A DNA stretch of 39,611 nucleotides from Acinetobacter phage vB_Aba_01KA: sequence record PV615262.1, one strand, 5' to 3'. The position numbers and the translations under genes are program-made. The notes under the pieces were generated by a model. The model was not told the origin of the DNA, ran no database searches, and saw only the letters and a list, made by a program, of their open reading frames with translations. Below are positions 380 through 36,631 of this stretch, piece by piece. How positions within the stretch are numbered: the first letter of the stretch is position 1; every line of letters begins with the position of its first letter.

Positions 380-3300
380 ATGGCGACTCGTGGTATTCGC
401 AATAACAATCCGGGCAACATCCGGGTAAGTAAGGACCAATGGGAAGGAATGACTGGAGATGATGGCGCATTCGTCACCTTCGATAGTCCAGAGTCTGGCG
501 TCCGAGCTTTGGGTAAAAACCTGCTGTCTTACGGTCGCCAAGGTTACGACTCCATCGAGAAGATTATCAACCGATGGGCACCTCCTAATGAGAACGAAAC
601 TAAGGCTTATATTGACTCAGTGGTGGCTGCAACTGGTATTCCAGCTACCCAGAGTCTAGACCTATCGAACCCGGACACCCTGTCTGCTCTGGCGCAAGCT
701 ATTAGCTTCCATGAGACAGGCTCCCGGTACAATCCTGAAGTCTATCAGAAGGGAGTCGAAAGAGCACTTAATGGCATTAGCCCAAAGACTCCACCAGTAA
801 GCGCTAACGTATTTGACGCACTCACGGAAGGACTCAAGGCTAAACCTAAAGTAGCTCTGGGTGAGAACCTTCCGACCGCTGCTGGTCTAAACATTGAGGG
901 TCAAGCACCAGAAGCTCCCAACGAATCGTTTGGTGAGATGTTCTATAAGTCTACTGGCGAGACCATGCAGGAACGAGAGGAGCGCTCTACGTGGTTCGGT
1001 TTCGGCTCGGCTACAGAAGCTGAAGTGAAGAACTCTATGGTCGGCGTGGCTATCCGCGCTGGTCAGACAGAGGACTCACTTGATGTCATTGGCGATGTGT
1101 TCAACCCTACCCGCTGGAACAACCATAAGTGGTCTCGTGAGGAGCTGGACCAGATTCGTAACGCTGGAGTTCTCCCTCAGTATTACGGTGTCATTACTGG
1201 TGGCTCTCCTCAGAACCTGACCGAGCTTATTAACTTGGCTCTTGAGAACCAGAAGTTGGACCAAGAGAAGGCCAAGGCGGGGACTGGTGCTCAGTTAGCA
1301 GCTGGTGTGATTGGTGCTGGTGTAGACCCGCTGACCTACGTTCCTATCGCTGGACAGGTTGGCAAAGGTGCGAAGCTGGTCAACAAGATGTTCACCGTGG
1401 CTGCTCAATCTGGAGCACTTGCTGGTGTATCAGAGATGGCCCGTACCTCAGTGGCTGGTGGTGATGCTCATGTGGCTGAAGCTATCCTTGGTGGTGCTCT
1501 CTTTGGTGGTGGTATGACTGCCCTCGCTGATGGGTTAGGCAGAGCCTTAGGTCGCAACACTAATGAGTTTGCTGGCCCAGCTACACGTCTGGAAGCTCGT
1601 GAGACCGCTCGTAACGTTGATGGTCAGGACCTGTCTCGTCTTCCTATTCAGGAAGGTGAGCAGACCTTTAGTCATCAAGGCGTTAAGTTCGCTGACGTTC
1701 CTAATGAGCCGGGAAGTGTACGATTAGAAGATGGTTCAATCCTGATTGGTGAGAACCCTCTGAACCCTAAGACACGTCAAGTCTTCGACGAAGTGATTGA
1801 GCCAGAACGTGCCGCTGCTGGTGTGAACCTTGGTGGACTTACCGAGATTGGTCTGAAGCTGCTTCGGTCTGAGAACCCTGAGATTCGTGGAGTAGCTGCT
1901 GACTTAGTACGTTCACCTACTGGTATGCAGTCTGGGGCCTCAGGTAAAATGGGACAACTGCGTCAGACGTGTTCGAGAGGCTTCGTGCTGTGGACCATCG
2001 GTTCTACAACGACATCGACGATGCGGTTACTGAGGCACTAAAGGACCCGTACTTCCAGACAGCATTCTGGCGAGACTCTGGAGCATTCCGTCAGGACATC
2101 TACCAGCGCGTGTCTATGGCTATCGAAGATGGCAGCGGAAACCTGAAGGCTGAACTGACTCCGGGAGAACTTAAAGTCTATGACCTACTGAAGAACCAGT
2201 TTGACGCCAAGCGTGAAATGATGGAGAACCCAGCTATGTTTGGTCGGCCAGACGCTCAGTCTGTCTTTCCGGGTAGCCGCTTCAAGGGAACCTACGTCCC
2301 TCATGTGTATAGCAAACAGATGAAGGAGCTGTACACCAAGGAGCTTGGGAGTCCAGAGGCGTTGCAGGAGGCCATCAAGAAGTCATGGTTGACCAGCTAT
2401 GCGTCTCGCCCTGAAGTCAAGAAACGCGTGGACGAGGCACTCTTAGAGTCTGACCCTACGTTGACTCCAGAAGGACTTGCGGCTGCGGTCGATAAGTACG
2501 CCAACGATAAGGCTTACGGTATCTCCCACACCGAGCAGTTCGAACGTTCATCCGTAATGGAAGAGAACATCAACGGTCTGGTTGGTCTGGAGAACAACAG
2601 CTTCCTTGAGGCTCGTAACCTGTTCGATAGCGATATGTCAATCGTCCTACCTAACGGTCAGACCTTCAGTGTCAACAACCTGCGTGAGTGGGACATGGAC
2701 AAGATTGTCCCGGCCTACAACCGTCGAGTTAATGGCGATATTGCTATCATGGCTGGTACAGGCAAGACAACGAAAGAAATGAAGGACTTGGTTGAGACCA
2801 TGATGAACAAGGCTGGTGATGACGGAAAGTTGAAAGGTGAAGTATCTACCTTGCGTGACACACTGAAGATTCTAACTGGTCGTTCTCGACGTGATGGGGC
2901 TGACGATGCAGCCTTCGCTGCCGTGATGCGCACAATGACAGACCTATCGTTCTTCGCTAAGAATGCCTATATGGGTGTTCAGAACTTAACGGAGATTGGT
3001 GGTATGCTGGCCCGTGGTAACGTTCGTGCAATGCTTCATGGAGTCCCAATTTTCCGTGACCTAGCCTTCCGTAACAAGAAGGTAGGGGCCTCAGAGATTA
3101 AGGACCTGCACAATGTTATCTTCGGTAAGGAACTGGATGACTCAATCCGTCCGTCTAAACAGGATGTCATTGACCGTCTGCGATCTTACAGTGACCTCGG
3201 TCGTGGTACAGCTACAGCTCTGGGGACTGCCAAGTATTACACTGGCGAACTTGCAGTACGCTCTCCGTTCACTAAAGTCCTCAACGGTACTACCAACTAC

Positions 3301-4265
3301 CTGTTAGATGCTGGACGTCAAGGCTTCCTGTCTGACATCGTGGAGCATAGCCTGACTGGTAGTAAGCGTAAGTTCGATGACCGCTGGCTGAAGACCGCTG
3401 GTATCTCTGACGAGCAGTGGAAGGGCATTAAGTCCCTAATCCGTGAGTCAGTGACTCGTGGTCCAGACGGGAAGTATACCATCAAGGATAAGAAGGCGTT
3501 CAGTCAGGACCCAAGGGCTATGGACCTGTGGCGTATGGGAGATACCATCGCTGACGAAACGTTACTCCGGCCCCACAAGCTGTCCAACATGGACGCCAAG
3601 GCTTATGGTCCTCTCGCTAAGACTGTCCTTCAGTTTAAGAACTTCGTCATCAAGTCCATCAATGGTCGAACCATGCGAACCTTCTATAACGCCACGAAGA
3701 ACAACCGAGCGATGGATGCTGCCTTGTCCACTGTGATGTCTATGGGTCTGGCTGGTATCTACTACATGGCTCAGGCTCACGTCAAGGCTTACGCTATGCA
3801 GGATGGTAGAGACCGTGATTACCTCAAGCAAGCTCTTGACCCGACGATGATTGGATATGCAGCTCTATCACGTAGTTCACATCTGGGTGGTCCACTTGGG
3901 TAGCTAACATTCTGGGTGGCATCGCTGGGTATGAGGACACTAAGATGCTCCGTTCGTCTATCCTACCTCGTTCGCCTACAGAGAAGCCTGAACGTGCCAT
4001 CGCGTATGGTGCAGCTACAAGTGACCCTGTGATGAATGTTGTTGGTAACTTCTTGGAGCAGGTTCCAGCTTTCGGATATGCTGCTAACGTTGGCGCTTCG
4101 GCTTACAACTTGGCTGGCTACCTCAAGGCTGATACTCGTGTCAACGAGCGTGACTACATGACCGGGATGTATAATACGTTCCGTGAACTGGTTCCGAACG
4201 ACCCAATTACCCAGAAGCTGTTGCTTGGAACGTTTGAGGAGCAAGGTATCCACATCAAGGACTAA
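380..4265 (+). CDS. internal virion protein gp16 (core/ejection protein), interrupted by two apparent single-base frameshifts
   Basis: Three colinear ORF pieces (380-2041, 1969-3903, 3945-4265) match T7 gp16 from about residue 150 to the C-terminus (GTYVPHVY, SFLEARNLFDSD, TGKTTKE, ELVPNDP). They join if one G is restored in the GGG run near 1950 and one base near 3900-3945. RBS AAGGAG precedes ATG 380. The N-terminal ~130 aa are not T7-like. Confidence 0.85.
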
Positions 4266-7851: not shown

Positions 7852-8111
7852 CGCAGATGGACTTAGAGAAGTTCCTCTTGATGCTTGATACTGAGCGTGC
7901 TCGACTTATGCTGCAAGACTTGCGGGATGACACTAAGCGTTCACCTCAGCTCTACAACTCCATTGAGAAGCTACTGGCTCGTCACAACTTTGTGTTAAGC
8001 AAGGTGTCTGTTGACGAGAAGACGCTGGCTGATATGGAGGCCCTGAACGCAGAGTACGATAAGGTGCTCTCCGCTACGGAAGATAATGACACCGGGTACG
8101 GTGTTCAATAA
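7848..8111 (+). CDS. terminase small subunit (T7 gp18 homolog)
   Basis: 87 aa ORF at the position and size of T7 gene 18; start overlaps the holin stop (ATGA). Confidence 0.7.
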   Translation: MTQMDLEKFLLMLDTERARLMLQDLRDDTKRSPQLYNSIEKLLARHNFVLSKVSVDEKTLADMEALNAEYDKVLSATEDNDTGYGVQ

Positions 8112-8115
8112 GTGT

Positions 8116-8168
8116 TAGACTCAAGGTCATTACTATATGTAGTGGCCTTTATGGTTAACACTAACTAG
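8116..8168 (+). promoter_or_regulatory. conserved RNA hairpin, probable RNase III processing site (R18.5-like)
   Basis: TAGACTCAAGGTCAT box; stem AAGGUCAUUAC/GUAGUGGCCUU with two G-U wobbles; same element recurs at 17371 and 24121 with compensatory changes. Confidence 0.5.
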
Positions 8169-11681: not shown

Positions 11682-11800
11682 GTACCACATCAACACGAAA
11701 CAACGGTGATGACCAACACTGAAATGGTCTACCTGAAGTCCTCTGACTGAAGGGAATGCTCTTTAACAATCTGGATAAACTCTTAATGTGCGCCGATAGC

Positions 11801-11857
11801 GATTAACTACAGGGCCTTTTAGTCTACATCTGAAGGCCCTGACTGATAGTCACTAAC
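11801..11857 (+). promoter_or_regulatory. RNA hairpin upstream of the first early gene (RNase III site, R0.3-like)
   Basis: GATTAACTAC-CAGGGCC-loop-GGCCCTG-ACTGATAGTCACTAAC; 7-bp stem; second copy at 12126-12175 has the same flanks and a covarying stem. Confidence 0.5.
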
Positions 11858-11866
11858 TTAACGCGG

Positions 11867-12121: not shown

Positions 12122-12125
12122 GAGT

Positions 12126-12175
12126 GATTAACTACAGGTCGTTAGCTTATAGCGGCCTGACTGATAGTCACTAAC
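12126..12175 (+). promoter_or_regulatory. second copy of the early-region RNA hairpin (RNase III-like)
   Basis: GATTAACTACAGGTCG-loop-CGGCCTGACTGATAGTCACTAAC; stem CAGGUCG/CGGCCUG including a G-U pair. Confidence 0.5.
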
Positions 12176-12193
12176 AACTGAGAGGATATAACT

Positions 12194-12999: not shown

Positions 13000-13125
13000 A
13001 TGTACCAGATAACTTATAGCAGTGAACAGGCGTTCTACGATGGGTGCTACGAGATGATGAAGCGCGGTGCTTGCTACGTGGCTAATCACCATAGCCTGAC
13101 CATAACGCTGACAGGCGGGTACTGA
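13000..13125 (+). CDS. hypothetical small early protein (41 aa from ATG 13000)
   Basis: In frame with track ORF 12937-13125, but the start at 13000 follows GGGAGA and avoids overlap with the preceding ORF. Confidence 0.35.
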   Translation: MYQITYSSEQAFYDGCYEMMKRGACYVANHHSLTITLTGGY

Positions 13126-13281
13126 GTGATAGACGAGAGGTCATCGACTGATAGGTGGCCTCAAAGATTACCACTTAAATTGATAGAGGTTAACTATGAG
13201 TGTTGGACATTGGGTATGCTTATCTCCGGTCATCTTTCTGATAGCTTGGGGGATATACGACTGTATTAAACGGAAATCACT

Positions 13282-14033: not shown

Positions 14034-14056
14034 CTTAACTATCACTATAGGACTAA
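14034..14056 (+). promoter_or_regulatory. phage RNA polymerase promoter immediately upstream of the RNA polymerase gene
   Basis: CTTAACTATCACTATAGGACTAA, full consensus; +1 G about 14050, 75 nt upstream of the gene 1 ATG; leader contains a direct repeat AAGTGAAAGAC at 14071-14081 and 14095-14105. Confidence 0.7.
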
Positions 14057-14124: not shown

Positions 14125-16804
14125 ATGAGCGTCATCTCTATTGACAAACACGACTTCTCTGATGTGTCGAACGCCATTGAGCCGTTTAACCTGCTGGCTG
14201 ACCACTACGGGCAAGACCTTGCAGTCAAACAGCTTCAGCTTGAGCATGAGGCATACACTGAAGGCGAGCGACGTTTCATCAAAAACCTTGAGCGCCAGAC
14301 TGAGCGCGGGGAACTGGCAGACAATCAGGTCGCCAAGCCTTTGATGCAGACTCTGGTTCCTAAGATTGCGCAAGCCGTCAGGGAGTGGCATGAAGGTCCA
14401 GACGGGAAGCTGTCAACCTCTCGTCCTAGCGTAGCGTTCACCATGTTAAGCACCGAAGAGAAGGCCGTCAAGGACCGCTCTCTGCGTATCTCTTGCGAGT
14501 CTGCTGCGGTCATCATACTGAAGGTCATACTCTCCAAGCTGGTAAAGCCTGAAGGGATACCGATTACACCGATGGCCTCCGCGATAGGTCGCACACTTGA
14601 GGACGAAATCCGCTTCGGTCGCATCCGTGACAAGGAGAAGGAGCACTTCAAGAAGGCGATAGCTGAGAACTTGAACAAGCGAGCTGGGGCATCCTACAAG
14701 AAAGCCTACATGCAAGCGGTCGAGACATCCATGCTGGAGCAAGGCCAACTGGAAGATGCGTGGGGACTTGGAGTCCTACAGAGGCTGTCCACGTGGGCAT
14801 CAAGATGCTGGAGATTGTCATCCAGTCAACACAACTGGTCGAGCTTAAGCGGTACGGTGCTGGCAATGCAGCGGCTGACGTAGAGATGGTCCACCTGTCA
14901 GACTTCTGGGTCAAGAAGATGGCACAACGAGGATTCAGCCTTGCGGGTATCGCTCCAGTCTACCAGCCTTGCGTCGTTCCACCTAAGCAGTGGACTGGTG
15001 TCGTAGGTGGTGGGTACTGGGCCAAAGGTCGCAGACCGTTACCATTGATTCGCTTAGGGTCTAAATCAGCGGTGGCACGTTATGAAGACGTATACATGCC
15101 TGAAGTCTATGAAGCTGTGAATATCATCCAGAATACACCTTGGAAAGTGAACAAGAAGGTACTGGACGTGGTGAACATGGTCGAGAAGCTGAACAACACG
15201 CCTATTGATGACATCCCTCAGATGGAGCCACTGAAGCCTGAAGACTATGCGGGTGAGACCGAGGAGGAACTAAAGGCATGGAAGAAGCTGCTGCTGGTAT
15301 CTATCGCCGCGAGAAGGCCAGACAGTCACGCAGATTATCACTGAGCTTTATCGTCAACCAAGCGAATAAGTTCTCTCAGTTCAAGGCCATCTGGTTTCCA
15401 TACAACATGGACTGGCGCGGTCGAGTCTACGCTGTGCCGATGTTCAACCCACAGGGTAACGACATGCAGAAGGGTCTCCTGACTCTGGCAGTCGGTAAGC
15501 CTATTGGTGCTGACGGTTTCAAATGGCTGAAGGTCCATGGAGCAAACTGCGCGGGTGTCGATAAAGTCACCTTTGATGAGCGCATCAAGTGGGTGGAAGA
15601 CAACCACGACAACATTATGGCTGCTGCTAAGGCACCGATGGATAGCATTGAGTGGTGGGGCAAGTTCAGACTCTCCGTTCTGCTTCCTTGCGTTCTGCTT
15701 CGAGTATGCTGGTGTAATGCACCACGGATTGTCTTACTCCTGCTCACTGCCGATAGCGTTCGATGGGTCATGCTCAGGGATTCAGCACTTTAGCGCGATG
15801 CTTCGTGATCACGTCGGTGGACATGCAGTAAACCTAACGCCTTCCGGTAAGGTCCAAGACATCTACCGAATCGTTTCCGACCGCATTGAGGAAGAGCTTA
15901 AAGTCCTGCTGGTTAACGGCACGGACAACGAGATGGTAACTCACGAGGACAAGAAACTGGTGAGATTACCGAACGCCTCAAGCTGGGGACACGAGAGCTG
16001 GCCCGGCAGTGGCTGACTTACGGTATGTCACGCAAGGTCACTAAGCGTTCAGTAATGACTCTGGCCTATGGGTCGAAAGAGTACGGCTTCGCAGACCAAG
16101 TTTATGAGGACATCGTGATGCCAGCGATTGACTCAGGGTCTGGCGCTATGTTCACCGAGCCAAGCCAAGCGTCTCGCTTCATGGCTAAGATGATTTGGGA
16201 AGCTGTGAGCGTGACCGTAGTTGCTGCGGTTGACGCGATGAAGTGGCTTCAGGGTGCTGCCAAGCTGCTGGCTGCTGAAGTGAAGGACAAGAAGACTGGA
16301 GAAATCCTGAAGCCTTGCCTTCCGGTACACTGGGTAACACCTGATGGTTTCCCGGTATGGCAGGAATACCGCAAGAAGGATACCACTCGTCTGAACCTGA
16401 TGTTCTTAGGGTCATTCAACCTTCAGCCTACGGTCAACAAAGGCATGAAGAAAGAGCTGGACAAGCACAAGCAGGAGTCAGGCATTAGCCCGAACTTCGT
16501 CCACTCACAAGATGGTAGCCACCTACGCAAGACTGTAGTACACACGCATCGCAAGTATGGCGTGATGTCATTCGCAGTGATTCACGATAGCTTCGGGACC
16601 ATCCCTGCTGACGCTGAGTATCTGTTCCGTGGCGTCCGTGAGACGATGGTCGAGACCTACCGCGACAACGATGTGCTGCTTGACTTCTACGAGCAGTTCG
16701 AATGCCAGCTTCACGAGAGTCAGCGCGACAAGTTGCCTGAGCTTCCGAAGAAAGGTAAACTGAATATCGAAGACATCTTGTCTTCAGACTTTGCATTCGC
16801 TTAA
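14125..16804 (+). CDS. T7-type single-subunit DNA-directed RNA polymerase (gene 1), interrupted by about four single-base indels
   Basis: Five colinear pieces (14125-14883, 14760-15344, 15278-15793, 15537-16016, 16025-16804) match T7 RNAP throughout (FNLLADHYG, ARFGRIRD, PCVVPPK, AIWFPYNMDWRGRVYAV, DGSCSGIQHFSAM, HDSFGT, ends SDFAFA). Shifts near 14767 (G run), 15287 (A run), 15665 and 15955 (A run). Confidence 0.9.
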
Positions 16805-17350: not shown

Positions 17351-17373
17351 CCTAAACTATCACTATAGGATTA
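17351..17373 (+). promoter_or_regulatory. phage RNA polymerase promoter (phi1.1-equivalent)
   Basis: CCTAAACTATCACTATAGGATTA, consensus match. Confidence 0.8.
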
Positions 17374-17425
17374 GACTCAAGGTCATGACTAAAAGTCGTG
17401 GCCTTCATGATTAACCCTAACTAAT
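17371..17425 (+). promoter_or_regulatory. conserved RNA hairpin, probable RNase III site (R1.1-like)
   Basis: TTAGACTCAAGGTCATGAC-TAAAA-GTCGTGGCCTTCATGATTAA; stem with two G-U wobbles at the same positions as the 8116 and 24121 copies. Confidence 0.5.
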
Positions 17426-23936: not shown

Positions 23937-24119
23937 ATGGAGGGTTCCATTCTAATGTTACGAAAACTTAAAGCTCGCTACCATCGGTTCATGTACAAAT
24001 GGTGGAGTGACGAAGCAACCTGCCTATCCAACATTCTGGGAGACCAAAGGTTCGACTCCGAGGCATGGAAGAAAGCTAACCGGAAATTCATGTACCACTT
24101 CTTGCGTACAGACTTCTAG
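23937..24119 (+). CDS. hypothetical protein (60 aa; alternative start 23955)
   Basis: GGAGGG RBS before ATG 23955; position of T7 genes 4.3-4.7. Confidence 0.4.
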   Translation: MEGSILMLRKLKARYHRFMYKWWSDEATCLSNILGDQRFDSEAWKKANRKFMYHFLRTDF

Positions 24120-24120
24120 G

Positions 24121-24165
24121 TCTAGACTCAAGGTCATTCACAGCGAGTGGCCTTTATGATTAGAC
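24121..24165 (+). promoter_or_regulatory. conserved RNA hairpin, probable RNase III site (R4.7-like)
   Basis: TCTAGACTCAAGGTCATTC-ACAGC-GAGTGGCCTTTATGATTAGAC; third copy of the box, with compensatory stem changes. Confidence 0.5.
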
Positions 24166-24182
24166 TAAACGGAGGATTAACC

Positions 24183-26353
24183 ATGTTTGACCTTAAGAGT
24201 ATCTGGGGTTCTGACATCGAGACCAACGGTCTCCTTGACACCGTGTCCCAGTTCCACTGTGGGGTCCTGATTAACGCCGAGTCGAATGAGACCCTTAAGT
24301 ACGGGGTAGCTCCGATGGTCGGTATCGTCGGTGGCTTCAAAGAGTATGTGCATAAAGTGGAAGAGATTGCCGCATCACCTGATGGTATGCTGGTATTCCA
24401 TAACGGTATCAACTATGACGTCCCGGCTATAGACAAGCTGAAGCGTTTGTACTTTGGGAAACGCTTTAACTTCCCGAAACATAAGATGATTGATACCTTG
24501 GTGCTGGGACGCTTGATGTATCCAAACATTAAGTTCTCAGACATGGGCGCAGTGAAAGCTGGTCGTCTGCCGCCTAAGATGATGGGACGCCAGTCTCTTG
24601 AGGCTTGGGGCTATCGTCTCGGTGAGATGAAGGGTGAGTACAAACACGATTACGTTGCCAAATGCAAGGCTGAGGGTATCGAATATAAGGCTGGGGACGA
24701 ATGGTTGTTCCCGTCTCAGGAGATGCTGGACTATAACGTTCAAGACGTTGTGGTCACACTGGCGTTGTTCAAGAAGTTCCTGACTGACAAGTATTACTTC
24801 CAGTCTGAACAGTTCGCTTTCGACCAGATTTATGCGTTGCGTCTTGAACATGATGCTGCGTGGACCTGTGCGAAGATGGAACGTAACGGCTATCCGATGA
24901 ACACCGAGATGGTCGAAGGCTTATACCGTGAACTCACCGTCAAACGTGCAGAGCTACTGGACAAGCTGCGTTCGACTTTTGGTAGCTGGTATGCACCGAA
25001 GGGAGGCAAGGAGTTCTTCAAGCACCCACGGACAGGTAAGGACCTTCCTAAGTATCCTAGAGTCGTGTATCCCAAGGTCGGTGGAATCTTTAAGAAGCCG
25101 AAGAACAAAGCTCAACGCTTAGGTCTTGAACCCTGTGAACGCGATACGCGAGACACGATGGAGGGAGCACCATTCACGCCAATCACTTACGTTGAGTTTA
25201 ATCCGGAAGCGGAGACCACTTAGCGAAAGTTCTGATTGAGCGTGGCTGGGAGCCTGTGGACTTCACTGACACAGGGAAACCTGTAGTCGATGACGAGACG
25301 TTAGAACACGTTAAGTTACCAGACGAAGAGGCTCAGGCTTGCGTAGAGCTTGTCCGTGAGTATCTGGTAGTCCAGAAGCGCATCGGTCAGGCTGCTGAAG
25401 GTAAGAACGCATGGTTGAAACTTGTAGGTCCAGACGGACGTATGCACGGTTCAATCAACCCATGCGGTGCAGTAACCGGACGTGCGACTCACAGTTCACC
25501 AAACATGGCTCAAGTCCCAGCTAACGGTGCTCCATACGGTGAGACTTGCCGTGGTGCTTTCGGTGCAGCTTGGAACAAGACGGATGGTAAGCCAGACCCT
25601 TGGATTCAAGTTGGTGTGGATGCTTCAGGTCTTGAGCTTCGTTGTCTGGGGAACCGAGCGGCTCCGTTTGATGGTGGCGACTATGCGAAGACTGTGGTCG
25701 AAGGTGACATCCACTGGGCCAACGCAGTAAACGCTGGGTTAGCACCTAACGTCCCACGCGATAAGTCTAACCACGACCATGAGGCTTTCCGTAACAACGC
25801 TAAGACGTTCATCTATGCGTTCCTGTATGGTGCAGGAGCCGCTAAGATTGGACTGATAGTCGGCGGTGGTAAGAAGGAAGGTTCAGCTCTCATGAAGAAA
25901 TTCATTGAGGGTACACCAGCCATCAAGGACCTCAGGGAAGCTGTGAGTAGTACGTTAATATCAGACTCTAAGTGGGTGGATGGAGAGAACATCGTTAAGT
26001 GGAAACGCCGTTGGCTGCGTGGACTTGATGGTCGCCGTATCCACATCCGGTCGCCACACTCAGCACTTAACGCTCTACTTCAGGGTGATGGTGCGGTTGT
26101 CTGTAAGCACTGGATTGTCGAGACCGAACGTATGCTGGAAGCCGAAGGATACGTCCACGGCTGGGATGGAGACTTTGCGTACATGGCATGGGTGCACGAT
26201 GAGCTACAAATTGCGTGTAAAAACAATGACATAGCTGAACGTGTTGTACAGATTGCTCAACTAGCTATGCGTAAGGTTGGCGAGTTCTATAACTTTAAAT
26301 GTGTCCTTGATACCGAAGGTAAGATTGGACCAACGTGGAAGGAGTGTCACTAA
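24183..26353 (+). CDS. DNA polymerase (gene 5, family A), one apparent frameshift near 25200-25230
   Basis: 3'-5' exonuclease motif DIETNG, HNGINYDVPA, LEAWGYRLGEMKG, YNVQDVVVT, then polymerase motifs (RATHSSPNMAQVP, GVDASGLELRCL, NAKTFIYAFLYGAG, HAWVHDE) colinear with T7 gp5. Start taken at ATG 24183 (RBS GGAGG). Confidence 0.9.
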
Positions 26354-27922: not shown

Positions 27923-28048
27923 TTTACTGGGTCGGACTTCTGGCCCTTTACTGCATGTACAAGTGGTTCGGGTCGAACAACCGTCCTAAACACTGAGTCT
28001 AACCGATAGTCATATCCTATCAATACAACAGTCATCCATAGGTGAAAC

Positions 28049-28071
28049 ACTAAACTATCACTATAGGGACT
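28049..28071 (+). promoter_or_regulatory. phage RNA polymerase promoter (phi6.5-equivalent)
   Basis: CACTAAACTATCACTATAGGGACTT. Confidence 0.8.
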
Positions 28072-28132
28072 TTAGGACCTAAGATATGACTATAAGATAG
28101 ACTTTAGTCTTAACTTAAAGAGGAGATTCAAG

Positions 28133-29328: not shown

Positions 29329-30895
29329 ATGGCTGAACGTGAAGGCTTTGCTGCCGAAGGAGCCAAAGCGGTCTATGACCGTCTGAAGAACGGACGACAG
29401 CCATATGAGACGCGCGCTCAAAACTGTGCTGCTGTCACTATCCCGTCACTGTTTCCTAAGGAGTCCGACAACTCGTCTACTGAATATACCACTCCGTGGC
29501 AAGCTGTAGGTGCTCGCTGTTTGAACAACTTGGCTGCAAAGCTGATGTTGGCGTTATTCCTCAGTCACCATGGATGCGACTTACAGTCTCAGAATATGAG
29601 GCCAAGACCTTGAGTCAGGACTCAGAGGCTGCTGCTCGTGTTGACGAAGGGCTGGCTATGGTCGAGCGCGTGTTGATGTCCTACATGGAGACCAACAGTT
29701 TCCGTGTGCCATTGTTCGAAGCTCTGAAGCAGCTTATCGTCTCCGGTAACTGTCTACTCTACATTCCAGAGCCTGAACAGGGTACTTACAGTCCTATGCG
29801 AATGTACCGCTTAGTGTCTTACGTTGTTCAACGTGATGCATTCGGTAACATCTTGCAGATTGTGACTTTAGACAAGGTAGCGTTTAGTGCTCTACCGGAA
29901 GACGTGAAGTCTCAACTCAACGCAGAAGACTATGAGCCTGACACAGAGCTGGAAGTGTATACGCACATCTATCGTCAGGACGACGAGTATCTACGCTATG
30001 AGGAAGTGGAAGGCATTGAGGTAGCAGGGACCGATGGTTCTTACCCACTGACTGCCTGTCCATACATCCCGGTACGAATGGTTCGACTGGACGGTGAAGA
30101 CTATGGTCGCTCTTATTGCGAGGAGTATCTGGGAGACCTGAACTCGCTGGAGACGATTACAGAAGCTATCACCAAAATGGCTAAGGTAGCCTCCAAGGTG
30201 GTGGGCCTCGTTAACCCGAACGGTATCACGCAACCTCGTCGTCTGAATAAGGCGGCTACAGGTGAGTTCGTGGCTGGTCGCGTTGAGGACATCAACTTCC
30301 TGCAACTGACGAAAGGTCAGGACTTTACGATTGCTAAATCGGTGGCTGACGCTATCGAGCAGCGTCTAGGCTGGGCCTTCCTTCTTAATAGTGCTGTTCA
30401 GCGTAATGCCGAGCGAGTCACTGCTGAAGAGATTCGTTATGTTGCTGGCGAACTGGAGGCGACCTTAGGTGGTGTGTACTCAGTACAATCCCAAGAGCTT
30501 CAGTTACCTATCGTCCGTGTGCTGATGAACCAACTTCAGTCTGCTGGCATGATTCCTGACCTTCCGAAGAAGCGGTAGAGCCTACTGTCTCCACTGGTCT
30601 TGAAGCTCTGGGCCGTGGTCAGGACTTGGAGAAGCTGACTCAGGCGGTTAACATGATGACAGGTATTCAGCCGCTATCTCAGGACCCGGACATCAACTTG
30701 CCGACCCTTAAGCTGAGACTCCTGAACGCTCTGGGCATCGACACCGCTGGCCTACTCCTGACGCAAGACGAGAAGATGCAACGTATTGCTGAACAATCTG
30801 CTCAAGGAGCTGTGGTCAACGGTGCGTCTGCTGCTGGCGCTAACATGGGAGCTGCTGTAGGTCAGGGAGCTGGTGAGGACATGGCTCAAGCCTAA
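29329..30895 (+). CDS. portal (head-tail connector) protein gp8, two apparent frameshifts
   Basis: YETRAQNCA, TIPSLFPK, TPWQAVGAR, LMLALF, MRLT.SEYEAK, YRLVSYVVQRDAFGN, CPYIPVRMVRLDGEDYGRSY, NSAVQR..ERVTAEEIRYVA colinear with T7 gp8; shifts at a CC run near 29545 and a GG run near 30575; C-terminal piece 30626-30895. Confidence 0.9.
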
Positions 30896-30913
30896 ACTAT
30901 CACTATAGGAACA
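30891..30913 (+). promoter_or_regulatory. phage RNA polymerase promoter (phi9-equivalent)
   Basis: CCTAAACTATCACTATAGGAACA; overlaps the portal stop. Confidence 0.8.
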
Positions 30914-30915
30914 AC

Positions 30916-31009
30916 TAGAGCCACTCAAAGTGGGACTTACTGTAGCGCAAACAATGACCGTGGGTAGTGAGCCTAGGTCATCCTACAGGTCCTACTTTGA
31001 GTGGCTCTA
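30916..31009 (+). promoter_or_regulatory. large nested inverted repeat (structured 5' leader of the gene 9 transcript)
   Basis: Perfect 16-bp arms TAGAGCCACTCAAAGT (30916-30931) and ACTTTGAGTGGCTCTA (30994-31009); inner pairs CTGTAG/CTACAG and ATGACC/GGTCAT. Confidence 0.55.
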
Positions 31010-31039
31010 CCTATTAACGACTTAAAGGAGAATGACTTA

Positions 31040-31924
31040 ATGTCTCAATCAGTTTATGCCGAGTTCGGCGTTAGCTCTAATGCAATCACTGGTTCCGTTG
31101 AGGACCTGAACGAACACCAAAAGTCTATGCTTGAACAGGACGTAGCTGTTCGCGATGGCGACGACGCTATTACCTTCAAGCAACTGGAAGCCGAAAACGA
31201 AGAGGCGACTGAAGAAGACGAAAACGTCGAAGAGACTGAAGGTGAAGAAGACCACGAGTCCGATGACGAAGAGTCTGAGACAGATGGTGAGCAGCCTGAG
31301 TTCATCGAACTGGGTGATGCACCGAAAGAGCTGACCGAAAGTGTCACCGCTCTGGATGAAAACGAAGCTGCATTTGACGACATGGTGTCTTCTGCTGTAG
31401 AAGCCGGCAAGGTCACTGCTGATGAAATTACCGCTATCAAGGCTGAATACGCCAAGGACGGTAAGCTGTCTGACGCATCCTACGCTAAGTTGCAGGAAGC
31501 AGGTTACACCAAGCGTTTCGTAGATTCGTTTGTCCGTGGTCAGGAAGCGCTGGCTGAACAGTATGCTGCTGGTGTGGTTCGCTACGCTGGTGGAGCTGAA
31601 CAGTTTAACCGCATCCTGTCTCACCTTGAGTCAAACGACCCGTCAACTCGTGAGGCACTGGAAGCTGCTATCGTTCGTAAGGACATTGCTACTACCAAAG
31701 CACTGCTGAATCTGGCTGGCAAGACTCTGGGTAAAGCTGTGGGTGTTAAACCTCAGCGTACCATCACCACGCAGGCTAAACCTGTGGTCGCACCTAAGGC
31801 TCCTCAGACCGAAGCATTCAGCTCCAAGGCTGACATGATTAAGGCTATGAGTGACCCGCGATACCTGCGTGACGCTAAATACACGATGGAAGTTCGCGCT
31901 AAGGTAGCTGCCTCAAGCCTGTAG
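31040..31924 (+). CDS. capsid assembly (scaffolding) protein gp9
   Basis: VYAEFGV, ARDGDDAI, highly acidic central region, SYAKL.E.GYTK.F.DS..RGQEAL.EQY, ends MIKAMSDPRY as in T7 gp9; start at ATG 31040 after AAGGAGAA rather than the longer track ORF. Confidence 0.85.
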   Translation: MSQSVYAEFGVSSNAITGSVEDLNEHQKSMLEQDVAVRDGDDAITFKQLEAENEEATEEDENVEETEGEEDHESDDEESETDGEQPEFIELGDAPKELTESVTALDENEAAFDDMVSSAVEAGKVTADEITAIKAEYAKDGKLSDASYAKLQEAGYTKRFVDSFVRGQEALAEQYAAGVVRYAGGAEQFNRILSHLESNDPSTREALEAAIVRKDIATTKALLNLAGKTLGKAVGVKPQRTITTQAKPVVAPKAPQTEAFSSKADMIKAMSDPRYLRDAKYTMEVRAKVAASSL

Positions 31925-31925
31925 G

Positions 31926-31948
31926 ACTAAACTATCACTATAGGGAGA
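31926..31948 (+). promoter_or_regulatory. phage RNA polymerase promoter (phi10-equivalent, closest to full T7-like core)
   Basis: CTAAACTATCACTATAGGGAGACC. Confidence 0.85.
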
Positions 31949-32081
31949 CCAAGAGATAGACTCAAGGTTTTCCCACTAAGTCAGTACATACGGATTGTGC
32001 TGCAAGCTTGGCAACGATAGGCCCGTCTGGTCAGCGCTAGTGACCGAACCCAAACTAAAATTGAACAAGGAGAATTATCAT

Positions 32082-33125
32082 ATGGCAAACGTTCCGGGTC
32101 AGAAAATTGGTGCAGACCAAGGTAAAGGCAAATCCAGTTCCGACGCTCTGGCGTTGTTCCTGAAGGTATTTGCTGGTGAAGTCCTGACAGCATTCACTCG
32201 CCGCTCTGTAACTGCTGACAAGCATATTGTCCGTACCATTCAGAACGGTAAGTCTGCTCAGTTCCCGGTCATGGGTCGCACCTCTGGTGTGTATCTGGCT
32301 CCGGGTGAGCGACTGTCCGATAAGCGTAAAGGTATCAAACATACCGAGAAAGTGATTACCATTGATGGTCTGCTGACTGCCGATGTGATGATTTTCGACA
32401 TTGAAGACGCAATGAACCACTATGACGTGGCTGGCGAGTATTCCAACCAGTTGGGCGAAGCTCTGGCTATCGCTGCTGATGGTGCGGTGCTGGCTGAAAT
32501 GGCGATCCTGTGTAACCTCCCGGCTGCATCCAACGAGAACATCGCGGGTCTGGGCACTGCGTCCGTACTGGAAGTTGGTAAGGCAGCAGACCTGAACACT
32601 CCTGCTAAACTGGGTGAAGCAATCATTGGTCAACTGACCATTGCTCGTGCGAAGCTGACCTCCAACTACGTTCCTGCTGGCGACCGTTACTTCTACACCA
32701 CTCCTGACAACTACTCTGCAATCCTCGCGGCTCTGATGCCGAACGCTGCTAACTATGCTGCGCTGATTGACCCAGAGACTGGTAACATCCGTAACGTAAT
32801 GGGCTTCGTGGTTGTTGAAGTTCCACACTTGACTCAGGGTGGTGCTGGTGAAACTCGTGGTGAGGATGGTATCACTATTGCAACTGGTCAGAAGCACGCC
32901 TTCCCAGCTACTGCTGCTGGTGATGTTAAAGTTGCTCTGGACAACGTTGTGGGCCTGTTCTCTCACCGTTCGGCTGTAGGCACTGTGAAGCTGCGTGACT
33001 TGGCGCTGGAACGTGACCGTGACGTAGATGCTCAGGGCGACCTGATTGTTGGTAAATACGCTATGGGTCACGGTGGTCTGCGTCCTGAAGCGGCTGGCGC
33101 ACTGGTTTTCAGCCCAGCGACGTAA
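32082..33125 (+). CDS. major capsid protein gp10A
   Basis: ALFLKVF.GEVLTAF, GKSAQFPV, HTEKVITIDGLLTADV, EDAMNHYDV, AALMPNAANYAALIDPE, IRNVMGF.VVEVPHLT, SAVGTVKLRDLALER, AMGHGGLRPEAAG nearly colinear with T7 gp10A; ATG 32082 after AAGGAGAA. Confidence 0.9.
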   Translation: MANVPGQKIGADQGKGKSSSDALALFLKVFAGEVLTAFTRRSVTADKHIVRTIQNGKSAQFPVMGRTSGVYLAPGERLSDKRKGIKHTEKVITIDGLLTADVMIFDIEDAMNHYDVAGEYSNQLGEALAIAADGAVLAEMAILCNLPAASNENIAGLGTASVLEVGKAADLNTPAKLGEAIIGQLTIARAKLTSNYVPAGDRYFYTTPDNYSAILAALMPNAANYAALIDPETGNIRNVMGFVVVEVPHLTQGGAGETRGEDGITIATGQKHAFPATAAGDVKVALDNVVGLFSHRSAVGTVKLRDLALERDRDVDAQGDLIVGKYAMGHGGLRPEAAGALVFSPAT

Positions 33126-33256: not shown

Positions 33257-33261
33257 TTGAA

Positions 33262-33299
33262 ACCCCTTGGGTGCCTTCGGGTGCTTGAGGGGTTTTTTG
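33262..33299 (+). terminator. Tphi-like late terminator
   Basis: AACCCCTTGGGTGCC-TTCG-GGTGCTTGAGGGG followed by TTTTTTG; near-identical in form to the T7 Tphi hairpin. Confidence 0.8.
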
Positions 33300-34217: not shown

Positions 34218-36574
34218 ATGCCACTAATTACTCAATCAATCAAGAACCTTAAAGGTGGCATTAGCCAGCAGCCAGACATACTGAGGTTCTCAGACCAAGG
34301 CGAGGAGCAAATTAACTGCTGGTCATCAGAGAGTGATGGCCTCCAGAAGCGCCCACCTACAGTCTTCAAGAGACGTCTTAACATCGACGTTGGGAGCAAC
34401 CCTAAGTTCCACCTGATTAACCGTGATGAGCAGGAGCAGTATTACATCGTGTTCAACGGGTCCAACATTCAGGTAGTAGACTTGAGCGGCAATCAATACT
34501 CAGTTTCTGGTGCGGTAGACTACGTTCAGTCCTCCAACCCACGAGATGACATCCGTGTCGTTACCGTGGCAGACTATACGTTCGTCGTTAACCGTAAGGT
34601 TGTCGTCAAAGGCGGAAGCGAGAAGTCACACTCTGGTTATAACCGCAAAGCACGAGCTTTAATTAACCTGCGTGGTGGACAGTATGGTCGCACCCTTAAG
34701 GTAGGAATCAATGGAGGCGTTAAAGTTTCGCATAAGTTGCCAGCAGGTAATGATGCCGAGAATGACCCTCCTAAGGTTGATGCTCAGGCTATCGGTGCGG
34801 CTCTGAGAGACCTTCTTGTTGCTTCTTACCCTGCCTTCACGTTCGACCTTGGGTCTGGCTTCCTGTTAATCACTGCCCCCTCAGGGACTGACATTAACTC
34901 AGTGGAGACGGAGGATGGCTATGCTAACCAGCTAATAAGCCCAGTCCTAGACACTGTGCAGACAATCTCTAAACTGCCTCTTGCCGCTCCTAATGGATAT
35001 ATCATTAAGATTCAAGGTGAGACAAACAGTAGCGCCGATGAATACTACGTGATGTATGACTCCAACACTAAGACGTGGAAGGAGACAGTGGAGCCGGGAG
35101 TTGTCACTGGGTTCGATAACACCACAATGCCCCACGCTCTGGTACGACAATCTGATGGCTCCTTTGAGTTCAAGACTCTGGACTGGTCGAAGCGTGGTGC
35201 TGGTAATGATGATACAAACCCTATGCCTAGCTTCGTGGATGCTAAGATTAACGATGTGTTCTTCTACAGGAATAGGCTGGGGTTCTTGTCAGGTGAGAAC
35301 GTAATCATGAGCCGTTCAGCCAGCTACTTTGCGTTCTTCCCTAAGAGTGTGGCGACACTGAGTGATGATGACCCTATTGATGTAGCTGTAAGTCACCCTC
35401 GAATCTCAATCCTTAAGTATGCCGTTCCGTTTAGCGAGCAGCTACTACTTTGGTCGGATGAAGTTCAGTTCGTGATGACAAGCTCTGGTGTCCTTACCTC
35501 GAAGTCTATCCAGCTTGATGTAGGCTCAGAGTTTGCCCTAGGTGACAATGCCAGACCGTTCGCTGTAGGACGCTCAGTCTTCTTCTCAGCGCCTCGTGGA
35601 TCATTCACCAGCATTAAGCGATACTTCGCTGTAGCTGATGTGTCTGATGTGAAGGATGCAGATGATACAACTGGTCACGTACTGTCCTACATCCCTAACG
35701 GGGTGTTTGATATTCAAGGTACAGGTACTGAGAACTACATCTGCGTCAACTCTACAGGTGCATACAACCGAATCTACATCTACAAGTTCTTGTTTAAGGA
35801 CGGCGTACAGCTTCAAGCCTCTTGGTCACACTGGGAGTTCCCTAAAGATGATAAGATTCTTGCGTCTGCATCTATTGGCTCTACCATGTTCATCGTTCGT
35901 CAGCACCAATGGGGGTAGACATTGAGCACCTTAAGTTCATCAAGGAGGCAACTGACTTTCCGTCAGAGCCGTATAGACTCCACGTTGACTCCAAGGTGTC
36001 TATGGTCATCCCAATTGGCTCGTTTAATGCTGACACATATAAGACTACGGTTGACATTGGTGCTGCTTATGGCGGTAACGCTCCGTCTCCCGGTAGGTAC
36101 TATCTGATTGATAGTCAGGGTGCTTATTTGGACCTTGGGGAATTAACCAGTATCTCTACTGTGATTACCCTCAACGGCGATTGGTCAGGACGTACAGTGT
36201 TCATCGGACGGTCCTATCTGATGTCCTACAAGTTCTCACGGTTCCTGATTAAGATTGAAGATGATAGGGGCACTCAGTCTGAAGACACTGGTCGTCTACA
36301 GCTTCGTCGGGCTTGGGTCAACTACAAGGACACTGGCGCTCTGAGACTCATTGTCAGAAACGGTGAGCGAGAGTTCGTTAACACCTTTAATGGGTACACC
36401 CTTGGTCAGCAAACCATAGGGACTACTAACATTGGTGACGGGCAGTATCGCTTCGCTATGAATGGTAACGCATTAACCACGAGTCTAACCTTAGAGTCCG
36501 ACTATCCTACCCCAGTGTCAATCGTTGGGTGTGGCTGGGAGGCGTCATACGCTAAGAAAGCTCGTTCCGTCTAA
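34218..36574 (+). CDS. tail tubular protein B (gp12), one apparent frameshift near 35905
   Basis: ITQSIKNLKGGISQQPD..R start region and overall length (566 + 221 aa pieces) match T7 gp12; RBS AAGGAGGG. Confidence 0.85.
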
Positions 36575-36581
36575 CTTATTG

Positions 36582-36631
36582 AAGGGCCTATAGATTTACC
36601 TTAACTATCACTATAGGGACTATAGGCCCTT
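36582..36631 (+). promoter_or_regulatory. phage promoter (phi13-equivalent, core 36602-36619) embedded in a perfect 12-bp inverted repeat
   Basis: AAGGGCCTATAG (36582-36593) and CTATAGGCCCTT (36620-36631) flank TTAACTATCACTATAGGGA. Confidence 0.7.

Follow-up and report, generated by a model that had tools for sequence, protein, structure and literature searches.

A large hairpin in the phi9 leader of a K1F-like phage, one allele of a hypervariable leader cassette and a candidate RNase III processing site

The window analyzed here is the whole 39,611-nt sequence record of Acinetobacter phage vB_Aba_01KA (PV615262.1). Between gene 8 and gene 9 it contains a 94-nt palindrome, and the leader carrying it is referred to below as type A. 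The 1.1 kb around the palindrome is 99.9% identical to Escherichia phage vB_Eco_1RS (PV615263; Kayfunavirus, Studiervirinae) and 85–96% identical to ∼250 K1F-like phages. The locus is organized as follows.

30891–30913, plus strand: phi9 promoter, recognized by the single-subunit RNA polymerase of the phage (-17 to +6, numbered after T7)
30893–30895, plus strand: TAA stop codon of gene 8 (portal / head-tail adaptor), overlapping the phi9 promoter
30908–30915, plus strand: first 8 nt of the phi9 transcript, GGAACAAC, left as an unpaired 5′ tail (+1 to +8; pairing probability ≤0.28)
30916–30931 and 30994–31009, plus strand: perfect 16-nt arms TAGAGCCACTCAAAGT and ACTTTGAGTGGCTCTA, enclosing 62 nt
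30916–30936, plus strand: 5′ arm of the 21-bp lower helix, TAGAGCCACTCAAAGTGGGAC, which includes ACTCAAAGT
30930–31025, plus strand: 31-codon open reading frame with a GTG start, judged non-coding and almost certainly a gene-caller artefact
30937–30939, plus strand: 3-nt bulge UUA above the lower helix
30940–30988, plus strand: middle and apical part of the hairpin, the most variable part among carriers
30940–30945 and 30983–30988, plus strand: nested 6-bp stem CTGTAG / CTACAG
30947 and 30982, plus strand: isolated G–C pair between the two 6-bp stems
30954–30959 and 30976–30981, plus strand: nested 6-bp stem ATGACC / GGTCAT
30961–30965 and 30971–30975, plus strand: apical 5-bp stem TGGGT / GCCTA, with two G·U pairs
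30966–30970, plus strand: 5-nt apical loop AGTGA
30989–31009, plus strand: 3′ arm of the lower helix, GTCCTACTTTGAGTGGCTCTA, pairing with 30916–30936
31010–31039, plus strand: linker CCTATTAACGACTT, Shine-Dalgarno sequence and spacer, common to nearly all leader alleles
31025–31030, plus strand: Shine-Dalgarno sequence AAGGAG of gene 9
31040–31924, plus strand: gene 9 (head assembly/scaffolding protein; ATG at 31040), the first gene of the phi9 transcript
31943–32084: phi10 leader, 142 nt compared with a homologous leader of ∼111 nt in the other Kayfunaviruses examined, its 3′ part replaced
∼33258–33297: strong G+C-rich hairpin with a TTTTTT run on its 3′ side, downstream of gene 10, where a T-phi-like terminator would be expected for the phi9 and phi10 transcripts

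For promoters we worked with the K1F consensus. The motif AACTATCACTATAGG is present in nine copies on the plus strand, as counted over the whole window, against a chance expectation of zero. It has the T7 sequence CACTATAGG as its core, and the copy at the end of gene 8 matches the annotated phi9 promoters of T7 and T3 in position. Because those annotated promoters occupy the same position, we infer that the phi9 transcript begins at G30908. The hairpin would then span +9 to +102 of this transcript. It starts 20 nt past the gene 8 stop codon, leaves 15 nt to the Shine-Dalgarno sequence of gene 9 and lies on the only transcribed strand, directly 3′ of one of the nine phage promoters. This is the placement given in the initial annotation, which had put the palindrome past the phi9 promoter and before the ribosome-binding site (RBS) of the scaffold gene.

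Two further leaders in the window drew our attention. The phi10 leader opens with a 5′-terminal stem-loop, GGGAGACC…GGTTTTCCC, that contains TAGACTCAAGG. A phage-type promoter at 14037–14055 (+1 at ∼14050) lies ∼75 nt before the apparent RNA polymerase gene ORF at 14125, and its leader contains an AAGGTCT…AGACC pairing that recalls RNase III sites; at the corresponding position upstream of its RNA polymerase gene, T7 has only an E.coli promoter and the R1 site. Several genes in this record are also broken up. Gene 8 is split into three ORFs (29329–29613, 29496–30578 and 30626–30895), with single bases missing relative to PV615263 at 29166, 29558 and 30566, and the RNA polymerase, DNA polymerase, gp16-like and gp12-like genes each map as several overlapping ORFs (14125–16804, 24147–26353, 380–3903 and 34218–36574). 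The split ORFs look like indel errors in the sequence and not like biology, and the hairpin itself is free of the indels seen relative to PV615263.

The perfect 16-bp arms around 62 nt that had originally been described are present, and they form the base of a longer lower helix of 21 bp, whose arms differ at G30932·T30993 alone, a G·U pair in RNA. The nested inverted repeats also noted at that time correspond to the stems of 6, 6 and 5 bp. In total the hairpin has 39–41 pairs, ∼18 of them beyond the lower helix. Its minimum free energy (MFE) as RNA is −56.4 kcal/mol, compared with −25.8 ± 3.2 kcal/mol for 200 dinucleotide shuffles (z = −9.6; no shuffle as good), and the earlier view of this region as a large structured leader thus stands up to the folding-energy check. 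When all 39.6 kb were scanned, the best 100-nt fold was found here (−57.1 kcal/mol; mean −24.6, sd 5.1; z ∼ −6), ahead of a runner-up at −43.9 kcal/mol and more stable than the capsid-gene terminator. The palindrome is the sole inverted repeat in the sequence with 16 perfect base pairs and a spacer of <150 nt, where ∼0.0014 would be expected by chance, and the mean pair probability of the hairpin is 0.99 in a 501-nt context.

A very stable hairpin in nascent RNA between two genes could terminate or attenuate transcripts entering gene 9, whether made by the phage or the host RNA polymerase. We consider this extremely unlikely. The hairpin is followed not by a U-tract but by CCUAUUAACGAC / CCTATTAACGAC, a scan of 30000–32200 for intrinsic terminators gave no plus-strand site, the genuine hairpin with a U-run comes after gene 10, and stopping at this point would block the essential and highly expressed genes 9 and 10. 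The translational regulator proposed in the initial annotation found no support either. The Shine-Dalgarno sequence and AUG lie outside the hairpin, and we rejected RBS sequestration or a translational switch on the basis that their predicted accessibility is the same with type A, with another cassette or with none. A third candidate is the 31-codon reading frame at 30930–31025, which appears as a 'hypothetical protein' in PV615263 (7465–7560) and in EPr2 OM256482 (20591–20686). That it encodes a small protein is scarcely credible: the frame begins with a GTG that has no Shine-Dalgarno sequence and lies within a −57 kcal/mol helix, its PHANOTATE score is only −0.307, it is interrupted by a stop codon in the metagenomic type A leader L019 and by a 1-nt insertion frameshift in EcL30g, and it is missing from all other alleles.

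The palindrome belongs to none of the repeat or RNA families that we searched. The whole window has no match in Rfam 15 at the gathering threshold, and at E-value thresholds the only weak local match is on the minus strand, at 18.4 bits compared with a threshold of 37.4 bits. We rejected a host-derived repeat on finding no match in 5,426 E.coli genomes, and a repeat from another species on finding three single-arm matches in an exact-arm scan of 185,579 species genomes, compared with ∼9 expected by chance. REP/BIME, ERIC and MITE-like elements resemble type A in being imperfect intergenic palindromes of ∼100 nt that are present or absent depending on the genome. However, type A is found in one copy per genome, always at phi9, with no flanking direct repeat or target-site duplication, and we rejected a mobile palindromic element as well. 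No further copies or donors of type A were found in the window, in T7, in the phage database outside the phi9 locus or in IMG/VR, nor were any new variants of type A recovered from metagenomes, and the papers searched contain no description of the hairpin.

Within the phage database, 13 of 248 related phage records have the type A hairpin. The remaining 235 keep the promoter and the RBS but have other, non-homologous hairpin cassettes between them, and their database match is limited to the last ∼30 nt before gene 9. Conservation in relatives, which the initial annotation had named as a check on the element, is therefore a divided result: the arms are kept and remain complementary in the carriers, with a compensatory pair, but the palindrome is absent from most of the group. 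To describe the alternatives, we read the spacers of ∼70 loci from GenBank, IMG/VR and metagenomes. The borders are conserved, with the promoter …ACTATAGGAAC on one side and the RBS block CCTATTAACGACTTAAAGGAG on the other, and the stretch that they enclose can be sorted into nine or more types: A is the present palindrome, B is that of K1F, C is found in GA2A, the Salmonella ST phages and NS1, D in TM1, and E to I are further types. Type A has no significant homology to any of the other cassette types (local alignment against shuffles, p ≥ 0.18).

Cassette type does not follow the relatedness of the surrounding sequence. The upstream flanks closest to that of the window (94–95% identity) come from type C and type D phages, whereas those of the other type A carriers are only 85–92% identical to it, even where the type A element is 94–97% conserved. 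Since cassette type is independent of flank similarity, the cassettes must be exchanged by recombination. Type A is one allele of a hypervariable leader cassette that is swapped between a conserved promoter and a conserved RBS region, and it is not a group-wide feature. The neighboring phi10 leader is homologous in all Kayfunaviruses examined, and T7 and T3, which belong to different genera, have mutually homologous phi9 leaders. The hypervariability is therefore specific to the phi9 site in Kayfunavirus.

Although the cassettes are unrelated, every allele examined has a stem-loop between +1 and the RBS, as do T7 and T3. Three further kinds of phi9 leader come from IMG/VR: L064 and L069 have a simple 10-bp hairpin, GGAACAACAGGTCAGACTCTTGGCCTGTTACC, L066 has another unrelated cassette, and L073, from a phage with 65% gp9 identity, has a 5′-terminal GGGAGAG…CTCCC hairpin. 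With these leaders, the rule of some stem-loop right after +1 reaches beyond close relatives.

The 13 type A records contain nine distinct leaders and seven distinct hairpin sequences, which we aligned. Every cell of the lower and middle helices is paired in all seven. An A–U to G–C compensatory change occurs in the lower helix of five records, where ACTCAAAGT reads ACTCAAGGT; the only single-arm change seen is one G–C/G·U change in the same helix, which keeps the pair. In L019, the 3′ arm has an inserted TAA opposite the UUA bulge, with which it pairs, and the perfect helix then runs uninterrupted for 30 bp. Variable columns are concentrated in the apex (11/36, compared with 3/56 in the lower helix; Fisher p = 0.002). 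The alignment offers real but thin covariation support for the helix, because divergence among the carriers is low, with 29 of 31 helix-1 pairs invariant. Homogenization of the palindrome at the DNA level could also produce such pair-preserving change.

These data bear on two explanations in which the RNA fold has no function. In the first, the palindrome would be nearly neutral, having arisen by template switching or inverted duplication, or by illegitimate recombination, in a tolerant spacer, and would be exchanged along with flanking homology. The presence/absence polymorphism with sharp borders at conserved flanks, the accumulation of at least nine unrelated cassettes at one site with no dependence on flank similarity, and near-perfect arms that in one variant are perfect over 30 bp would all be expected from such a history, and the plus- and minus-strand folds are equally stable. 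We nevertheless regard it as unlikely, given that the element is better conserved than its upstream flank, that all three lower-helix changes keep the pairing while the apex drifts, and that all of the independent cassettes are structured, which argues for selection on structure at this site.

In the second explanation, the palindrome would work as DNA, for example as a cruciform, as a binding site for a dimeric protein or nuclease, or as a signal for recombination or replication. The inverted repeat is long, single-stranded DNA of this sequence is also predicted to fold stably (−29.6 kcal/mol, z = −8), and the palindrome marks a recombination boundary. However, a spacer of 52–62 nt is generally held to disfavor cruciform extrusion, the palindrome is single copy and the genome contains no second site related to it, the alleles found in its place are not DNA palindromes but fold in the manner of RNA, with G·U pairs and bulges, and the only single-arm change creates a G·U pair. 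The two strands of the phi9 leader fold with similar energies, so that strand asymmetry does not separate RNA from DNA constraint. We know of no DNA signal at phi9 in T7. A DNA-level role therefore seems very unlikely to us, and the palindrome in all likelihood functions as a cis-acting RNA structure.

What distinguishes type A from the other structured cassettes is the combination of a free 5′ end and a long helix. In alleles B to G, T7 and T3, at least some of the first 8 nt are paired with a probability of >0.9, usually from +1 or +2, the longest helix of the phi9 leader is 5–10 bp, and MFEs range from −9 to −24 kcal/mol. Type A is an outlier on both counts, with its first 8 nt free and an uninterrupted helix of 21–30 bp. 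In alleles B, E and G, the nucleotides of GGAACAAC have a pairing partner further downstream, and this partner is absent from type A. Compared with the 5′ stem-loops of T7-group late transcripts, such as the phi10 leader and the T7 and T3 phi9 leaders, type A occupies the same place between +1 and the RBS and is allelic with cassettes of this kind, but they start at +1 or +2 and have helices of ≤10 bp, whereas type A starts at +9 and is about three times more stable.

For the 5′-terminal alleles, stabilization of the mRNA would be a natural role; according to PMC6146998, which cites Mertens (1996), the 5′ stem-loop of T7 gene 10 is reported to be stabilizing. Like these T7 late-mRNA stem-loops, type A is located between +1 and the RBS and leaves the RBS free, but its pairing does not begin at or near the 5′ terminus. 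Orthogonal stem-loops are little hindrance to RNase E, which bypasses them readily as it scans from the 5′ end (PMC9943677). The unpaired 8-nt tail and this bypass together weaken the suggestion in the initial annotation of a stability element, insofar as it implies simple protection of the 5′ end.

A related explanation is that type A is a passive hairpin that RNase III leaves uncut, equivalent to the other cassettes but oversized, which would serve as a barrier to 3′-to-5′ exonucleases for the gene 8 read-through message and might insulate the gene 9 RBS. We view this as possible but doubtful. A start just past the gene 8 stop codon would suit such a barrier, a stem-loop at this position is shared by all phi9 alleles and by T7 and T3, the reported effect of the gene 10 stem-loop points in the same direction, and the canonical RNase III model has no match here (see below). 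The single-stranded 5′ end, on the other hand, sets type A apart from the other alleles, orthogonal stem-loops are poor obstacles to RNase E scanning, and predicted RBS accessibility is equal with or without the cassette. In addition, a perfect duplex of 21–30 bp should, partly on general grounds, be hard to keep uncut alongside RNase III.

The phage clearly relies on RNase III, given the six canonical sites described here and the inverted repeats around two other late promoters. The ten T7 RNase III sites, at the coordinates attributed to Dunn and Studier, gave a strongly conserved alignment with a ACUCAAGGUC…GGCCUUUAUGA signal on folding, which lends indirect support to these coordinates and to the K1F promoter consensus. 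Three perfect copies of this T7-derived signal are present in the window. A covariance model built from seven T7 sites and three window sites identified six canonical T7-type sites in the window (E 3e-13 to 6e-5), with the pairing TAGACTCAAGGTCAT…GTGGCCTTYATGRTTA; three of them were in the training set and three are new sites in the early region (E 2e-7 to 6e-5).

8110–8167, 11797–11859, 12123–12177, 13124–13180, 17366–17423 and 24117–24172, plus strand: canonical RNase III sites identified by the covariance model

The inverted repeats at 27996–28019 / 28080–28103 and 36582–36593 / 36620–36631 bracket promoters at 28053 and 36603, respectively. As each hairpin encloses its promoter, only read-through transcripts can form it, and the T7 R6.5 and R13 folds have the same layout.

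Type A is not a canonical T7-type RNase III site. The covariance model found nothing at 30900–31020 with filters off and E values up to 10, and half-site hidden Markov models scored the type A arm at E ∼10–13, a motif likeness that is not significant as a genome-wide search. Neither T7 nor T3 is known to have an RNase III site at phi9, reportedly after Dunn and Studier (1983), and their RefSeq records list none there. The canonical consensus has a 9-bp lower stem, an ACUC/UAUGA internal loop and an AAGGUC...GGCCUU upper stem, and type A has no match to it. Its apical region is 52 nt where T7-type sites have a short loop, and its 3′ strand is unrelated to their GGCCUUUAUGAUUA. The two are nevertheless alike in several respects. 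T7-type sites (the R0.3, R0.5, R1, R1.1, R1.3, R4.7, R18.5 class) are also intercistronic, on the transcribed strand and often just past a phage promoter, and they also present about two helical turns of double-stranded RNA. Their 5′ strand, TAGACTCAAGGT, is similar to the type A 5′ arm, which reads TAGA-GCCA-CTCAA(A/G)GT, or TAGA..ACTCAA(A/G)GT. The ACUC that faces UAUGA in the internal loop of canonical sites is paired by the 3′ arm of type A, forming ACUC:GAGU. On this sequence comparison, type A looks like a loop-closed, extended version of the canonical RNase III signal. Closing the internal loop of R1.1 reportedly gives double-strand cleavage in work from the Nicholson laboratory, and double-strand cleavage is what we would predict for type A, as opposed to the single cleavage typical of T7 RNase III sites.

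The dimensions of the helix also fit this enzyme. The longest uninterrupted helix is 21 bp in type A (30 bp in L019). No other phi9 allele exceeds 10 bp, nor do the leaders of T7 and T3, and folds around the ten T7 RNase III sites have 9–15 bp. Type A thus has the ∼20 bp or more, or two helical turns, of double-stranded RNA that a substrate would need, and it lies where a processing site would be expected, on the transcribed strand just past a promoter, after gene 8 has ended (30895) and before the ATG of gene 9 (31040). The RNase III valley accommodates ∼22 bp, and paired cuts in vivo are a median of 58 nt apart (PMC6212723). Our assessment of the fit concerns length and position; the specificity of RNase III in vivo also depends on base-pair preferences. 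Of the three roles suggested in the initial annotation (processing site, stability element and translational regulator), we infer that a processing site for RNase III fits best.

The interpretation that we favor, with about even confidence, is that type A is a cis-acting leader and intercistronic hairpin cut by host RNase III. Among the possible modes of action, double-strand cleavage by RNase III is the most likely because the 5′ end is left free and the duplex has a length that RNase III accommodates. The stem-loop forms at +9 to +102 of the late phi9 transcript and, where transcription from promoters further upstream reads through, also between the gene 8 and gene 9 cistrons. According to this model, host RNase III would then cut both strands of the lower helix, with cuts predicted by analogy with canonical sites near 30925|30926 and 31001|31002, releasing an 18-nt 5′ fragment and a ∼76-nt hairpin RNA. 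The phi9 leader would be trimmed to a 5′-monophosphate end ∼38 nt before the AUG, and the gene 8 message would be separated from the gene 9–10 message. Overall, this would adjust how stable the portal message is relative to the scaffold/capsid messages. The cleavage, the cut positions and the effect on expression should be read as predictions, whereas the structure, its location, its pair-preserving evolution among carriers, its allelic nature and its distinctness from other families are observations. Because eight other cassettes serve at the same site, the data also suggest that any specific function of type A is dispensable.

Long, near-perfect hairpins that are cleaved by RNase III and lie in a leader or just past a gene include the lambda sib retroregulator and the rnc and pnp leader hairpins. 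Type A is like them in form and place, and its predicted double cleavage would alter the stability of the adjacent message. It has no sequence relationship to any of them, however, and for type A both the cleavage and the regulatory effect are predictions.

A more speculative model would add an activity in trans. In this model, the leader would be a 'hot-swappable' cassette under diversifying selection, and the type A duplex, abundantly transcribed in late infection, or the released ∼76-nt hairpin could titrate RNase III or act as a decoy for host defenses that sense double-stranded or other RNA. We consider it quite improbable; if true, it would explain why unrelated structured cassettes replace one another at phi9 while the phi10 leader stays homologous.

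For T7-group phages, both structured leaders and RNase III sites belong to textbook knowledge, and the element alone leaves that picture unchanged. Type A is probably an unusual variant of a familiar theme in phage mRNA processing and not a new kind of element. What is new about type A is that it gives up pairing at the 5′ end for a fully paired duplex of RNase III size, from which double-strand cleavage is predicted. In practical terms, two GenBank records carry a spurious protein gene annotated inside the hairpin, and because K1F-type promoters and leaders serve in orthogonal expression systems, the choice of leader may affect the fate of the mRNA. The more interesting by-product of this analysis is the hypervariability of the site. 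The Kayfunavirus phi9 leader is a site of recombinational cassette exchange, with at least nine alleles that are unrelated and yet always structured, and it provides a natural experiment on what the leader of a late mRNA needs.
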